Origin: a virus
Taxonomy: Duplodnaviria; Caudoviricetes
IMG/VR virus record: IMGVR_UViG_3300025121_000013
Strand: one strand, 5' to 3'
DNA length: 64,000 nt
Shown here piece after piece: positions 8,788 to 37,600 of the stretch. Position numbers and translations under genes: made by a program. Below the pieces are notes generated by a model that worked only from the letters and a program-made list of their open reading frames with translations, was not told the DNA's origin and searched no databases. The stretch's first letter is position 1, and the number at the start of each line of letters is the position of its first letter.

Positions 8788-11700
8788 ATGGCTTCAATTA
8801 AAGATACGTTTGCAAAGTTAAAAACTTCTATCGTTGGAACAACCACCACAAATATTGATAATAAATTAGATCAGGCTTTAACTGATATTAATTCATATAG
8901 AAATCAAAGTGGTAAAAATGGTTATATTGATTTAATGAAAACTTTGATTTCAAAGAATGTTGATTTTGTTCCCGACGTTGCTAACACCGGAACTGGGTTA
9001 TTTGGGTCTGCTGGTTCTTCTCCAGCTAATTATGGACAAAGTGGCAGAATTTTAAGATATAAAGTTTATCAATCAATTGTTACAAATATTAGTTATTGTT
9101 TTAGAGCATTGGATGTTTTAGTTGATAATATTTTATCTCCAGATGACATTACAAAAATTTCATTAGACGTAAAAGAAATTAAAAATATAAATGATATAAA
9201 TGTTCAAAGTTTGACAGAAAAAACTAAATTATTAATAAATGATATAAAGCTTGAAAAACATTTGCCTTTAATTATTAAAGAGACATTAAAGTTTGGAGAT
9301 TTCTTTGTCGAGATTAGCAATTCAAAAGATGTTTTATTTACAAAAACAATTTTAACTGAAGAGAGTATTTTAGGACAGGATGAAAACAGAGGAAAACAAA
9401 GAATCAAATTACAAGAAAAACTTATTGATGAAAAAGATTCAAAGTTAAAAATTCCTGAAATTTTAATAGATTATAAGATATTAGAAAATGAAAGAAAAGA
9501 AGGAAAAAAAGAAGAGAAAAAATTAACTTCTAAAGATATTAAATTAGTTTTTCATGCCCCTCAAAGAGTGGTAAAATTACAGAGTGTCGCATATCCAATT
9601 TGTTTTGGATATTTAATATTTCCACAATCCTCATTTACTCCAATAGAGATGTTTCAAGACACCACAATAAATAATATTTGTAATCAAATTTTAAAAAATC
9701 TTGAATCAAATATTCCAGCGATGGGTGACTTTGATGCGCCGGATGATTTAAAAGATGTCATCCGTTTAATGATTCAAAATGCCGATCCAACCAGAGCATT
9801 GAGTATTAGATATGTTCCGCCTAATAAAATTGCACATTTTTTGGTCCCATCTTATAAATATTATCCTTATGGAGAATCCATATATGATAGCGCTCAATAC
9901 ACGGCGAAAGTTTTAATCGCTTTAGAAACGGCTTTAGCCATTCAAAGACTTTCAAGATCAACTGAGAAAAGAAAGATCACGGTTGATATTGGATTGCCAA
10001 GAGATGCAAAAAAAGAGATTGAAAGTTTAAAAGAAGTTTTTAGAAAGAGAAAAATCAATTTAGATTCGTTTGGAACTATCGACACTATAGCGTGTTTAGA
10101 TTTGGATACTGAGATTATGTTGACAAATGGCAAATCAATGCCAATAGGAGACATTGTAAAATATTTTAATGAAGGAAAAGAATTTGAAATTTTAGCCTAT
10201 GATAAAGAGTCTGGGACAATTGTTCCTGATAAAGTTGTAAGCGCTAAAATAACTGGAAGAAATGTTAAAACTATAAAGGTGATTTTAGATAATAATGAAT
10301 TTGTAATTTGTACGCCTGAACATTTATTTATGATGAGAGATGGCTCATATAAGGAAGCAAAAGATCTTATTCTTGGTGATTCTTTAATGCCTTTATATAC
10401 ACGATCTTCAAATAGTACAACTTCTAAGGGGTTTACTTATGAAGAAATGTATCAACCTGGGTTAAATACTTGGAAATTAACCCATCAAGTTTTTGGAAAA
10501 TATTTAGGACTTTATGAAAATAAAGATGTTGTGCATCATATTAATAAAAATCCAAGAGATAATAGTTCTTGTAATCTTTTAGGATGTACACATACAGAAC
10601 ATGCTGAGATTCACTCAAATGATAAAGAAAATGGTTATAACGGTGGAAATATTGGAAGGACTCAAATTAGAAAGAAAATAAATTGTGTTATTTGTGAAAA
10701 AGAATTTGAGAAAAATTATTGGGAAGAAAAACTAACTTGTTCCAATGAATGCTTTTTAATTTATAAGAAAAACTATAGCGTAAAGTCTTGGGAAACAAGA
10801 AAAGATCAAAATGAATATGTGCTTCATTCGGAAAAGTGTTTTATTTGTGGGAAAGAGTTTAAGATCACTAGATCTTTATATAATAAGATGATCGACGATG
10901 GTTTGAGATTAGTTTGTGAAAGTAAAAAATGCAAAGAAATTAATAAAGCGGTAAGAAAAGAAAGTTGTCCTATTTTTTATGTAGAATGTGTTAATTGTAA
11001 AAGAAATTTTATATCTGAAGATAAAAATAGAAAGGCTTGCAATGTTTTTTGTTGGAATAAACATATTAAAGAAAATGGGTTTAAACAAAATAGAGTTTCA
11101 GGAAAATGTCAAAACTGCGGAAAAAACGATATAGTATATTCTAAAGGTTTTTATAAAACATGTGATAATAAGAATTGTAAAAAAATAACAAAATCTTTAA
11201 ATACAACTTTATGTAAAAATGGAAATTGTACATTAATTGATTTTACAAAATGTTCTATATGTGGAAAAGATACTGTAATTTCCAAAAAGAAATCTGGATA
11301 CACTTTTGGAACTTGTGGAATAAGATCTTGTAGCCATAAAGCAATGCATAGGGGAATTTATCGAAATAAAGATCTTCAGGTTTTAAGAGAAGGAGTGAAG
11401 ATTGAAAAAAAGATTTTTTCAAATCATAAAGTTGAATCTATCGAGTATTTAAATGAAGGAAGAGATGTCGCAGACATTCAGACATCTAAATATCATAATT
11501 TCGGACTTAAAGCTAGTATATTCGTACATAATTCGCAAATCTCCACATTCGAGGATATCTATATTCCTACCAAGGACGGTAAGGCTTTTTTCGATGTTGA
11601 CACATTTACCGGTGGAAATGTTGATATTAGATCAAAAGTTGATGAGTTAAAATTCCTTAGAGATCAATTAGTTGCATCACTTTCGATTCCACCAGCGTTT

Positions 11701-12132
11701 TTGGGGATAGAAGAAAACGCGATCGTTAAAGCCACGTTATCCGAAGAGAATATTCTTTTTGCTAGAACAATTATTGCAGACCAGAAATTTATTTCTGAAC
11801 AAATAAATGATTTAATAGAAAAGATTTATCAAATTATTGATCCAGAAGAATATTTAACAGCTTGGGAAAATATTAAAATTACTTTGCCTCCGCCAAAGTC
11901 TTTACAATTTGAGAGAGAAGCAAAATATACAAATGATTTAGTCACTTTAGTTGAATCGCTTGAAAGAATAGGGATTCCAAAAAGTTATAGTGTTAAGAAA
12001 TATTTACAAAATATTGACTGGAAAGAAATAGATCAAATAAAAGCTGAAGAAGAAACTGAGGAAAAACTTAATTCAAAAGACAAAGATACAACAGGAGGAA
12101 TGGGTGGCAGTGGGTTGCCTCCTATGTACTAA
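8788..12132 (+). CDS. Portal protein (T4 gp20-like) containing an intein
   Basis: KFGDFF, YGESI, R...TEKRKI.VDIG.LP and EDIYIP..DG....VDTFTGG...DEL..L...L..SL.IP match gp20; lies upstream of the protease and capsid genes. Confidence 0.85.
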   Translation: MASIKDTFAKLKTSIVGTTTTNIDNKLDQALTDINSYRNQSGKNGYIDLMKTLISKNVDFVPDVANTGTGLFGSAGSSPANYGQSGRILRYKVYQSIVTNISYCFRALDVLVDNILSPDDITKISLDVKEIKNINDINVQSLTEKTKLLINDIKLEKHLPLIIKETLKFGDFFVEISNSKDVLFTKTILTEESILGQDENRGKQRIKLQEKLIDEKDSKLKIPEILIDYKILENERKEGKKEEKKLTSKDIKLVFHAPQRVVKLQSVAYPICFGYLIFPQSSFTPIEMFQDTTINNICNQILKNLESNIPAMGDFDAPDDLKDVIRLMIQNADPTRALSIRYVPPNKIAHFLVPSYKYYPYGESIYDSAQYTAKVLIALETALAIQRLSRSTEKRKITVDIGLPRDAKKEIESLKEVFRKRKINLDSFGTIDTIACLDLDTEIMLTNGKSMPIGDIVKYFNEGKEFEILAYDKESGTIVPDKVVSAKITGRNVKTIKVILDNNEFVICTPEHLFMMRDGSYKEAKDLILGDSLMPLYTRSSNSTTSKGFTYEEMYQPGLNTWKLTHQVFGKYLGLYENKDVVHHINKNPRDNSSCNLLGCTHTEHAEIHSNDKENGYNGGNIGRTQIRKKINCVICEKEFEKNYWEEKLTCSNECFLIYKKNYSVKSWETRKDQNEYVLHSEKCFICGKEFKITRSLYNKMIDDGLRLVCESKKCKEINKAVRKESCPIFYVECVNCKRNFISEDKNRKACNVFCWNKHIKENGFKQNRVSGKCQNCGKNDIVYSKGFYKTCDNKNCKKITKSLNTTLCKNGNCTLIDFTKCSICGKDTVISKKKSGYTFGTCGIRSCSHKAMHRGIYRNKDLQVLREGVKIEKKIFSNHKVESIEYLNEGRDVADIQTSKYHNFGLKASIFVHNSQISTFEDIYIPTKDGKAFFDVDTFTGGNVDIRSKVDELKFLRDQLVASLSIPPAFLGIEENAIVKATLSEENILFARTIIADQKFISEQINDLIEKIYQIIDPEEYLTAWENIKITLPPPKSLQFEREAKYTNDLVTLVESLERIGIPKSYSVKKYLQNIDWKEIDQIKAEEETEEKLNSKDKDTTGGMGGSGLPPMY
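10093..11532 (+). mobile_element. Intein (480 aa) with HNH homing endonuclease and Cys-rich repeats
   Basis: Block A CLDLDTEIMLTNG, block B CTPEHLF, HNH VHHINKNPRDN..CNL...H...H, and C-terminal HNF...FVHN followed by Ser. Confidence 0.9.
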
Positions 12133-22052: not shown

Positions 22053-22142
22053 TGGTGCCGAGGACGGGAGTCGAACCCGTACAGGGATTTCTCCACCGAG
22101 GGATTTTAAGTCCCTTGCGTCTACCAGTTCCGCCACCCCGGC
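22053..22142 (-). tRNA. tRNA-Leu(UAA)
   Basis: AGGGA-CT TAA AA-TCCCT; long variable arm; encoded CCA; no intron. Confidence 0.93.
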
Positions 22143-22161: not shown

Positions 22162-23493
22162 TTAACAGATTGAATTGAAAAAGGTTTTATCTATATGTTT
22201 AGGGCCAAAAGATAATATTTTGATAGGAACTTCAGTTTCTTCTCTTATAAATCTAAAAAATTTACTTTCCCATCCCCTTCCTTGAAAAGTTTCATAAGAG
22301 GGTTTAACAAAAGGTAAATATTTTGTAAGAAAGTTCTCTTCTGAAAGATCATATATTTCATTAGATTGAATATATTCGAAAAACAATTTATCTATATTTT
22401 TTAGTTCATCAAAAACATAATTTGTACAAACCTTTATTTTATCCATTTTATTAAGAAGATCAATATGGGTCAAAGCAATTCCATCTAAACCATTCGAAAT
22501 ATTTAAAGAATATTTCAAAGCAACTAAATCTAAATGTCCAATTCTAAATTTTCCCTGCCATCCATTATTTACATTATGTTTATCAAAAAATCTTAGAGAT
22601 TCATCTTCTGTAATTAATGGGCCATTACCATGTCTTGTGGTAAAAATTCTTGAAATGCCAATCATTTGAATATTTTCAATATCTTTAAAATCTATCGGAT
22701 TAATGGCAACATGTCTTTTTGTTACATATGGCAAGACCCCATATCTTGGGTCAAGAAGATTTCCTTGGGAGCTCTCAAAGATTATAACATCATTTGAAAT
22801 TTCATCGAGCTTTTCAAAAGGAAGATTATGAACATGACTTTCAATATATACTTTAAATTTTTTATATTCAGAATGTAAAAATTTAATATATTTTTTATTT
22901 ATAAAAGTACTAATAATTTTATCTTCTCGTATTGAAGAAGGAAATTCATCTAACAATTCATTTAAAATAAAATTGATTTTATCAAGCAAATATTTATCAG
23001 GTTTAAATAAATCAATGACTTTCAAAGTTGGGATATTTTTTTGTTTAGACCTTACATATTCTCCAACTCCAGCACCGCATGTGCTAAATTTTTTAACCCT
23101 ATCATATTCTCTTTTTCTGCCGAATAAAACATGAAAAGGAAGAATCAATTCACAATTTTCATGGATATCTATTCTTTCCCAAATATTTCTCGTTTTTGTA
23201 TTTAATACTTTCGCTTCTTCCATCATAGTCAAAGGGTCAAAAACCATATCTTCTGAATAAACGGTATTTGACTTTAAGTTTGATAAAGAATTGGAACCGA
23301 AGTGACTAAAACAATGATGAATATTTTTATTTATAACATTATGAGCGGCTTGATGTGCTCCATTAAATCGAATAGCTGTTGAAGGCCCAAACTTATGTCC
23401 AAGGGCATCAATAATACTTCCTTTTCCTTCATCTCCATAATTTAAGCCGAAAATCAAAAAACATTTTTTTCCTTTAAATATTTTATTATTCAT
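22162..23493 (-). CDS. Divergent adenylosuccinate synthetase-family ligase
   Basis: YGDEGKG, RFNGAHQAAHN, FESSQG.LLD, PYVT, TTRHG.GP, THID and SFGP; Asp-binding loop replaced by NNGWQGKFR. Confidence 0.85.
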   Translation of the reverse strand: MNNKIFKGKKCFLIFGLNYGDEGKGSIIDALGHKFGPSTAIRFNGAHQAAHNVINKNIHHCFSHFGSNSLSNLKSNTVYSEDMVFDPLTMMEEAKVLNTKTRNIWERIDIHENCELILPFHVLFGRKREYDRVKKFSTCGAGVGEYVRSKQKNIPTLKVIDLFKPDKYLLDKINFILNELLDEFPSSIREDKIISTFINKKYIKFLHSEYKKFKVYIESHVHNLPFEKLDEISNDVIIFESSQGNLLDPRYGVLPYVTKRHVAINPIDFKDIENIQMIGISRIFTTRHGNGPLITEDESLRFFDKHNVNNGWQGKFRIGHLDLVALKYSLNISNGLDGIALTHIDLLNKMDKIKVCTNYVFDELKNIDKLFFEYIQSNEIYDLSEENFLTKYLPFVKPSYETFQGRGWESKFFRFIREETEVPIKILSFGPKHIDKTFFNSIC

Positions 23494-31558: not shown

Positions 31559-31854
31559 TGGCGCGCTCGGAAAGATTCGAACTTTCGACCTACAGCTTCA
31601 TACCACTACGGCTTTCACCGCCAATTAGAAATTGTTTGTGGTCTGGACTTTGCCTTTACCATGCGCAAATATTGCGTTTAGGTACCCCCCGTCAAGTCTC
31701 TACACCTTCCCAAAAATCTTGGGCTTGGCTCGGCGTTACCATCGACTTTACGTTAAGGATTCACCGAGTTTGAGGGAATTCGACATTGAGTTTCCTCAAT
31801 GAAGTCCAATAGTTACATAGAAGGCTGTTGCTCTATCCGCTGAGCTACGAGCGC
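31559..31854 (-). tRNA. tRNA-Arg(UCU) split by a group I intron (exon 1 31819-31854, exon 2 31559-31598)
   Basis: Spliced exons give a 76-nt cloverleaf: GCGCTCG acceptor, ACAGC-CT TCT|AA-GCTGT, TTCGAAT T-loop, G-CCA. Confidence 0.92.
31599..31818 (-). mobile_element. Group I intron (IC3-like, 220 nt, no ORF) inserted after U36
   Basis: 5' exon ends in U and intron ends in G; core strings CAAACTCGGTGAATCCT, GGTAACGCCGAGCCAAG, GAAGGTGTAGAGACTTGACGG and GGTAAAGGCAAAGTCCAG. Confidence 0.9.
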
Positions 31855-37188: not shown

Positions 37189-37600
37189 TGGTGGAGGTGC
37201 ACGGGAGCTGCCCCCGTGGTCCGCAATGTTTTTCGCATGAAGATCCTACGCTCATAGTCTTCATAAATACTCACATAAAACAGAAGACCTTTTTATGTGA
37301 GGGAAGATATCCAAAACAACATTCGAAATCAAAAGACCTGGAACTTCCAATTCAGTCTAACGATTTCTATTCCTCTGTCGTTACGCCTCAATGAGACTCA
37401 AAGAGGAAGACAGTCTCAAAGAAACGTGCCCGTCGAGCGGACAATGCTGCGTTAAGCTATTAAGCGGCCAAAGCCACCTCATAGCCATCAGCAGCGGCAA
37501 ACGTGAAGTTCGCGGTTATTTTGTTCCGGCATTTTCGGAAGCCAGGCTCCGGAGCGCACTTCAAAGCTACTAATACACCACGTCGAATCTACGCACCCCC
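37189..37600 (-). ncRNA. ssrA: tmRNA, tag (A)ANFTFAAADGYEVALAA**
   Basis: 5' GGGGGTG..GATTCGAC and 3' CACCTCC-A-CCA with G3:U70; resume context AAATAACC-GCG; tag frame 37460-37513 ending ALAA TAA TAG. Confidence 0.92.

Follow-up and report, generated by a model that had tools for sequence, protein, structure and literature searches.

The described systems nearest to the element reported here are group I introns in the anticodon loops of bacterial tRNA genes. A search of bacterial and archaeal assemblies only distinguished 21 types of tRNA and insertion site in bacteria, including Arg.5Ug and Arg.3Ug (Williams, 2020; bioRxiv 10.1101/2020.01.27.920355), and intron-split tRNA-Arg-TCT genes have been described in Beggiatoa (BOGUAY) and Thiomargarita (Flood et al., 2016; PMC4853749). 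For phages the record is very thin. According to Hausner, Hafez and Edgell (2014; PMC3984707), all phage introns to date lay in protein-coding genes, despite the many tRNA genes of phages. Introns in phage tRNAs were still previously unreported when Devoto et al. (2019; PMC6784885) found them in Lak megaphages, and introns are not mentioned by Al-Shayeb et al. (2020; PMC7162821). Our full-text literature searches found no description of group I introns in phage tRNA genes. Here, we describe such a gene in a stretch of 64,000 nucleotides from the IMG/VR virus record IMGVR_UViG_3300025121_000013 (hereafter the window, to whose positions all coordinates refer unless stated). It is a tRNA-Arg(UCU) gene split between nucleotides 36 and 37 by a 220-nt insert, and this insert is, far beyond chance, a true compact group I intron of the IC3 type without an open reading frame (ORF). 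Like the Lak introns, it belongs to a very large phage and is overlooked by bacterial tRNA finders. The Lak introns were left unclassed ('enigmatic'), one of them perhaps encoding a tRNA, whereas the window element has a complete ribozyme core.

A group I intron in a phage tRNA-Arg(UCU) gene

Read directly from the sequence, the split gene runs from 31854 to 31559 on the minus strand and includes an encoded CCA. With introns enabled, ARAGORN returned the same object at exactly these coordinates, calling a 76-nt tRNA-Arg(tct) whose intron of 220 nt is inserted at position 36-37 (cttct-Intron-aagct). The parts of the gene are listed below with the evidence for each in brackets; intron position i equals 31819 minus the window coordinate, and MFE stands for minimum free energy.

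31819-31854, minus strand: 5′ exon of tRNA-Arg(UCU), nt 1-36 (sequence; ARAGORN with introns enabled)
31599-31818, minus strand: ORF-less group I intron, IC3 type, 220 nt (RF00028; model R1, described below; canonical helices; MFE fold, z -2.6)
31805-31808, minus strand: internal guide sequence UGGA, i11-14 (direct pairing)
31784-31801, minus strand: P2, i18-35, a hairpin of 7 bp capped by GAAA (relatives show up to 6 pair types at one position)
31772-31777, minus strand: 5′ strand of P3, UCCCUC, i42-47, followed by J3/4 AAA (pairs with GGGGGG at i129-134)
31730-31767, minus strand: P4 (i52-57 with i84-89) enclosing P5/P5a (i61-80) (MFE fold; alignment)
31704-31729, minus strand: P6/P6a, i90-115, GCC-AA-GCCCAA...UUGGG-AA-GGU (RF00028 alignment; pairing)
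31695-31700, minus strand: 5′ strand of P7, G-(A bulge)-GACU, i119-124, within the invariant GUAGAGACU (pairs with AGUCC at i170-174)
31685-31690, minus strand: 3′ strand of P3, GGGGGG, i129-134 (pairing; alignment)
31658-31683, minus strand: P8/P8a, i136-161, ACC-UAAA-CGCAA...UUGCG-CAU-GGU (MFE fold; alignment)
31645-31649, minus strand: 3′ strand of P7, AGUCC, i170-174, after the J8/7 string AAAGGCA (RF00028 alignment; pairing)
31602-31642, minus strand: 3′ domain with the long-range helix ACCAC/GUGGU, i177-181 with i213-217 (fold; alignment)
31599-31599, minus strand: terminal guanosine (omega G), i220 (sequence; ARAGORN)
31562-31598, minus strand: 3′ exon of tRNA-Arg(UCU), A37 to discriminator G73 (sequence; ARAGORN with introns enabled)
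31559-31561, minus strand: genomically encoded 3′ CCA (sequence)

The exons are those of an ordinary tRNA. The 36-nt 5′ exon, whose last bases are CUUCU, supplies the acceptor strand GCGCUCG, the D arm GCUC-AGCGGAUA-GAGC, the anticodon stem strand ACAGC, the loop bases CU and the anticodon UCU; the 3′ exon supplies AA, the anticodon stem strand GCUGU, a 5-nt variable loop AGGUC, the T arm GAAAG-UUCGAAU-CUUUC, the acceptor strand CGAGCGC and G73. With the intron removed, ARAGORN folds them into a canonical cloverleaf with all four arms paired and a 7-nt anticodon loop, CUUCUAA. By the rules for E. coli tRNA-Arg, A20 and C35 are identity elements for arginyl-tRNA synthetase, and both are present here, A20 in the D loop AGCGGAUA and C35 in the anticodon. 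Over the 5′ half, the identity to annotated tRNA-Arg genes of phages is 92%. Default ARAGORN found seven other tRNAs in the window and missed the split gene, and Rfam at gathering thresholds found other window tRNAs and a transfer-messenger RNA (tmRNA) but neither a tRNA nor an intron at the locus, and no group I match anywhere in the window. The tRNA for the most used Arg codon of this phage is therefore invisible to both tools at these settings, and tRNA inventories of large phages are likely to be incomplete.

The identity of the insert was established with covariance models. RF00028, whose seed contains no bacterial sequences (Williams, 2020), matched over its full length (model positions 1-253) at 31831-31625 with 37.4 bits (E 4.7e-8 in a 500-nt search in E-value mode), and this was its sole match in the 139-kb record (E 3.1e-9). 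A second model, R1, was built from 23 other viral tRNA introns with this one excluded. It scored the locus at 157.4 bits over its full length (E 2.5e-38, a somewhat inflated result for reasons given below), found nothing else in the 64-kb window, and placed the intron on a par with those of near-complete jumbo phage genomes. The hallmarks of the IC3 class are present: the 220-nt length, the anticodon-loop site 36/37, GAAA loops on P2 and P9b, and receptor-like P8 and P5. On the tRNA strand the insert contains no ORF of 50 or more amino acids, and its three short antisense ORFs have no Pfam match. No homing endonuclease or other nuclease family was recognisable nearby among the neighbouring ORFs either (29.7-36.9 kb against Pfam, 28.7-33.6 kb against PHROGs).

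The boundaries of the intron can be placed precisely. The insert starts AUGUAACUAUUGGA and ends GGUAUG. Moving the boundary one base to the right (A/A) would give the same mature tRNA, and only at 36/37 does a U precede the 5′ splice site and the intron close with a G, G220 at 31599. P1, which is short as in other tRNA introns, can be drawn with U34-A14, C35-G13, the wobble pair U36.G12 at the 5′ splice site, and A1-U11.

All pairs of P1, P2, P3, P4, P5, P6, P7, P8, P9.0, P9a and P9b are standard in this sequence. P3 and P7 together form the core pseudoknot and, on the covariance alignment, P3, P7 and J8/7 are all intact; by homology, P7 would provide the guanosine-binding pocket. The unconstrained MFE fold (-65.3 kcal/mol, z -2.6) recovers every helix but two: P7, which belongs to the pseudoknot, and the P6 stem of three pairs. 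Comparison with relatives points to the same structure. RNAalifold on 24 non-redundant viral tRNA introns recovers the P2, P3, P4, P5, P8 and P9 helices, with compensatory changes on both sides in 23 of its 40 pairs (in P2, P3, P4, P5, P8, P9.0 and P9b), and 90.7% of cells are paired on this intron's own structure. P3 is paired in 24/24 relatives with up to 5 pair types, its variants including CCUGUC/GGCAGG, CUUCUC/GGGAAG, CUCAUC/GGUGAG and UGCUUC/GGAGCA, and the long-range helix ACCAC/GUGGU alternates with ACUAC/GUAGU. Inside the latter helix lie two hairpins, P9a (i186-196) and P9b (i198-211), the second capped by a GAAA tetraloop. L2 and L9b are thus both GAAA. P8/P8a (CCUAAA...CAUGG) resembles the 11-nt tetraloop receptor, P5/P5a (CCUUAAC...GAUGG) is also receptor-like, and CCUAA-type motifs stand in both. 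The Azoarcus structure has two tetraloop-receptor braces, in which the GAAA loops capping P2 and P9 contact receptors within P8 and P5. The loops of the window intron probably dock on its P8 and P5 motifs in the same way.

A sequence-only reading of the window, made before this analysis, had proposed the split tRNA-Arg(UCU) gene with its 220-nt insert at 36/37, a compact group I intron with a P1 formed by UGGA and a U.G pair at the splice site, a terminal G, core strings close to those of the Azoarcus tRNA-Ile ribozyme, no homing ORF, and a gene that standard tRNA scans can miss. All of these agree with what we found, by direct reading, with the intron-enabled ARAGORN run that it had suggested as a check and, for the likewise suggested group I model search, with a full-length RF00028 match that nevertheless falls below the gathering score. 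The resemblance to Azoarcus sp. BH72 pre-tRNA-Ile(CAU) is close. Both are IC3 introns of around 200 nt without an ORF at site 36/37; they share the core strings CAAAUUCGG.GAA, CGCCGAGCCAAG, AAGGUGUAGAGACU.GACGG and AGUCCAG (row Aol6.Ile2.5Ug of the Williams alignment), the GAAA loops on P2 and P9, and the CCUAA-type receptors in P8 and P5. They differ in the host tRNA, in the higher G+C content of Azoarcus, and in the 3′ domain: in Azoarcus nothing separates P7 from the P9 hairpin (AGUCCAGGGAGUGGCGAAAGUCAC); the window intron has instead the ACCAC/GUGGU long-range helix with two hairpins inside.

In predicted architecture the window intron is closest to another group, the classical 36/37 introns of tRNA-Arg(CCU) (the Agrobacterium tumefaciens type, 'Arg.5Ug' of Williams). 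These are likewise inserted after the third anticodon base, and in both the anticodon pairs with a guide that follows UU (UUGGG there, UUGGA here). The 3′ domain is also shared: AGUCCAGACCAC, a GNRA-capped hairpin, then GUGGUAUG. The Arg(CCU) exons are the most similar of those compared, at 82-85% identity to the window tRNA, and metagenome loci sharing the window's 3′ domain and junction were tRNA-Arg(CCU) in 33/33 cases, with a UGGG or UUGGG guide. What sets the window gene apart is its anticodon, UCU, a guide GGA that gives a Watson-Crick U34-A pair, and its location in a phage genome. This combination hints, as a lead only, that an anticodon change from CCU to UCU may have been carried through together with the intron, the guide changing from GGG to GGA. 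What weakens a compensatory interpretation of this guide change is that the UCU introns of bacteria have retained GGG, with a U34.G pair.

Related introns in viruses and bacteria

Introns of this family are common in phage tRNA genes. A 20-mer from the intron core, AAGGUGUAGAGACUUGACGG, matched at least 120 contigs of IMG/VR. Intron-aware tRNA calling on the 120 matches listed gave 39 tRNA-Leu(UAA) genes, 13 tRNA-Arg(UCU) genes besides the one in the window, and smaller numbers of Lys(UUU), Ser(UGA) and Thr(UGU) genes. Viral introns of the family score 127-194 bits with R1, sit like the window intron in tRNA anticodon loops and occur in the same kind of genome. The 13 other viral tRNA-Arg(UCU) genes among the matches listed are split at 33/34 or 34/35, in contrast to the 36/37 site used here; a second pattern scan added one more viral 36/37 case, the only other one found, on a 235-kb contig that is 95% complete (L140). 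Related introns therefore split viral tRNA-Arg(UCU) genes at three loop positions, 33/34, 34/35 and 36/37 (L024, L028, L034, L035, the window and L140). Where the split is at 34/35 (L024), the last exon U seems to lie opposite A, not G, in P1.

Between one and three introns of the family occur in each of four jumbo phage records that are nearly complete, so these are not misfiled bacterial fragments. One jumbo phage genome (L067; IMGVR_UViG_3300022935_000005, 281 kb, 92% complete) has three split tRNA genes in a row within 1.5 kb, for Arg(tct), Leu(taa) and a tRNA with a UCA anticodon (G002:C1:212914-214380; R1 155-180 bits). Intron-split tRNA-Leu(UAA) genes are also present, unannotated in GenBank, in the huge-phage records LR756501 and LR756511; neither locus has an RF00028 match at E <=0.01, yet both plainly belong to this family. 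The intron in LR756511.1, a 595-kb huge phage, is about 690 nt long and contains an ORF with an HNH-like motif, CPNCH (L003:574-1270); some viral tRNA introns thus have HNH ORFs, whereas the window intron has none. In INPHARED, blastn matched tRNA-Leu introns and unrelated intron cores, with no tRNA-Arg intron relative. A core of the same family was also seen in the cultured Pelagibacter phage HTVC120P (MH598807.1, 19653-19807), inside an annotated capsid protein gene, which suggests that this gene may hold an unannotated group I intron. All 119 IMG/VR matches to a 14-mer spanning the junction, AGTGGTATGAAGCNG, were due to chance, with no intron core upstream, and the combined core-plus-junction pattern gave 0 matches in IMG/VR.

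The UCU isoacceptor is not confined to viruses as a host for such introns. Among the 120 pattern matches listed from genomes of bacterial species, at least 24 were tRNA-Arg(UCU) genes interrupted at 36/37, mostly in Rhodothermales, with some in Chloroflexota and Bacteroidota. Matches of the same pattern in Pelagibacter were coding sequence, not introns. Same-family introns also split tRNA-Lys(UUU) at 34/35 in Pseudolabrys and other Alphaproteobacteria (L176, L190, L219 and L228), genes that ARAGORN miscalls as Asn or Lys(ctt). The view taken in the sequence-only reading, that UCU is an unusual host isoacceptor, is thus mistaken: the 24 or more bacterial and 13 viral genes among the matches listed contradict it, as do two earlier reports (Flood et al., 2016; Williams, 2020). 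Its further suggestion, that such an intron is unusual in a phage, holds for the literature (Hausner et al., 2014; Devoto et al., 2019) but not for the sequence data, in which the window locus is an ordinary member of a known family.

The bacterial Arg(UCU) introns share with the window the isoacceptor and, in the genomes found here, the 36/37 site (Arg.3Ug of Williams is at 34/35). They differ from it in forming, together with L140, a solid clade of their own (100/99), in which the guide is GGG and the 3′ domain is of the Azoarcus type. The window intron falls outside this clade in free trees and its position is unstable: one tree puts it, unresolved, beside a viral Leu intron, another with a viral Lys clade on a long branch. 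The approximately unbiased (AU) test does not reject a grouping of all Arg(UCU) 36/37 introns in one clade (p 0.29), and the window intron is only about 70% identical to any sampled intron.

Given how frequent IC3 introns are in phage tRNA genes, phages are a plausible vector for the sporadic ORF-less tRNA introns of bacteria. A bolder synthesis can be drawn, in which the tRNA genes of phages, and of jumbo phages in particular, are a large undescribed reservoir and vehicle of IC3 introns, the intron followed or drove the switch from CCU to UCU, and it may have been kept because it brings a benefit. We offer this whole only tentatively and regard it as unlikely in its full form. If true, it could explain the patchy occurrence of ORF-less tRNA introns among unrelated bacteria.

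Probable splicing of the precursor and its place in the phage

The gene belongs to a giant, AT-rich phage of groundwater, whose record is 139,369 bp long, 45% complete by CheckV, and has a G+C content of 29.5%. Within the window, PHROGs matches include a portal protein, a major head protein and a DnaB-like helicase. Besides the split gene the contig has 13 uninterrupted tRNAs, of which 7 lie in the window, and the tmRNA; no other tRNA-Arg occurs on this 139-kb, 45%-complete contig. AGA accounts for 70% of Arg codons, or 24 per 1000 codons, in 94 long ORFs of the contig. The sequence-only reading was therefore right to call it a frequent Arg codon. Its proposal that AGA decoding would depend on splicing finds support in the absence of a second tRNA-Arg from the incomplete contig but remains conditional on what the host's own tRNAs supply.

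From the features described above, splicing would be expected to follow the usual group I course. The split gene would be transcribed as a 296-nt precursor, in which the intron folds into its P3-P7 pseudoknotted core and P4-P6 domain, braced, by homology with Azoarcus, by the P2 and P9b GAAA loops on the P8 and P5 motifs. P1 would form between the anticodon U34-C35-U36 and the guide GGA. A free guanosine in the P7 pocket would attack after the U36.G12 wobble, G220 would then take its place there, and U36 would be ligated to A37, releasing the intron and yielding a 76-nt tRNA of normal form, with CUUCUAA as its loop. The anticodon stem may help to keep the exons together, as it is reported to do in the Anabaena pre-tRNA (Zaug et al., 1993, as cited in PMC3984707). 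We put the probability at about 85% that the intron is functional, whether self-splicing or protein-assisted, in a working tRNA-Arg(UCU) gene, whose product would be used by the phage. The intron, which has no homing endonuclease of its own and none recognisable nearby, is most simply viewed as a selfish passenger that the phage tolerates thanks to its splicing.

Several observations weigh against this explanation or soften its support. With RF00028 the intron scores 37.4 bits, short of the gathering score of 50. The relatives behind both R1 and the covariation analysis were picked with a 20-mer of this intron that includes the 5′ strand of P7, so that the R1 score is partly circular and P7 is invariant by selection. 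P1 consists of only three exon pairs and one intron pair, and P10 of about two (A37-U11 and A38-U10), so exon alignment would need support from the anticodon stem. The intron's G+C content of 44-45% is much lower than that of the Azoarcus ribozyme, and its folding may need help. Finally, none of the sequencing runs listed for the locus is of RNA.

Some of these points bear on a narrower alternative, that this is a true group I intron which splices under physiological conditions only with a host or phage protein such as an RNA chaperone or a tRNA-synthetase-like cofactor. The low G+C content, even within a 29.5% G+C genome, and the short P1 and P10 would fit such a dependence, and many group I introns do need protein cofactors in vivo, CYT-18, Cbp2 and StpA being examples. 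Small IC3 tRNA introns of like architecture, however, such as those of Azoarcus, Anabaena and Agrobacterium, self-splice in vitro; the tetraloops and receptor-like bracing motifs appear all to be present here, and Pfam and PHROGs matches of the neighbouring ORFs reveal no candidate for a cofactor. We consider an obligatory protein requirement improbable. For splicing assays, the intron would serve as a compact ribozyme of low G+C content.

A second alternative is that the intron benefits the phage, by gating the supply of the tRNA (through GTP, Mg2+ or timing), by shielding the precursor from anticodon nucleases, as the sequence-only reading had proposed, or by protecting the tRNA gene from the homing nucleases of competing phages. 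The recurrence of split tRNA genes in jumbo phages, at 1 to 3 per near-complete genome in four records, could be taken in this sense, as could the splitting at three loop positions of a tRNA that reads the dominant Arg codon. The same recurrence is equally expected of selfish elements spreading among phage tRNA genes; moreover, the spliced tRNA would have an ordinary anticodon loop that a nuclease could still cleave, and no nuclease gene is recognisable nearby with Pfam or PHROGs. A benefit of this kind is unlikely. Least probable of all is an inactive relic in a tRNA pseudogene, its precursor unspliced or poorly spliced and the phage relying on host tRNA-Arg(UCU): the short P1 and P10, the absence of RNA among the listed runs, the sub-threshold Rfam score and the lack of a homing endonuclease to maintain or spread the intron would be in keeping with it, but the core is undamaged (U.G wobble, terminal G, J3/4 AAA, GUAGAGACU/AGUCC and both GAAA loops), the exons still give a flawless cloverleaf with CCA, the family-model score is as high as for introns of near-complete jumbo phages, and a dead intron in the gene for the most used Arg codon should decay or be lost.

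Other features of the locus and contig

DNA of this phage is present in groundwater and soil metagenomes from seven studies. Contigs from DNA runs of other groundwater samples (four checked) yielded two further runs with the identical intron-bearing sequence; intron-less joined exons were absent from the contigs of the four DNA runs, which has no bearing on expression. Promoter-like sites near the gene showed no excess over shuffled sequence, and the promoter/terminator scan found no terminator-like site at the locus. No relatives of the two flanking small ORFs were found in IMG/VR.

The tmRNA of the phage, a full-model match to RF00023 at 88.9 bits, is encoded at 37189-37600 on the minus strand and shares a block with the tRNAs. 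On the plus strand, at 8788-12132, a 1114-amino-acid ORF resembles a portal protein in its C-terminal part and a virion structural protein in its middle, and has a short HNH-endonuclease-like stretch at amino acids 578-615; this stretch could be an insertion into the portal gene, for example an intein or a fused nuclease. A homologue of PurA/PurZ-like adenylosuccinate synthetases is encoded at 22162-23493 on the minus strand (phrog_1211, E 9e-55) and adjoins an uninterrupted tRNA-Leu(UAA) at 22053-22142. Outside the window, at 90921-91007 of the same contig and beside a second tRNA-Leu(UAA), default ARAGORN assigned no type to a tRNA whose anticodon it gave as four bases (ggcc); with introns enabled, it called instead a tRNA-Ser(tga) with a 13-nt insert.

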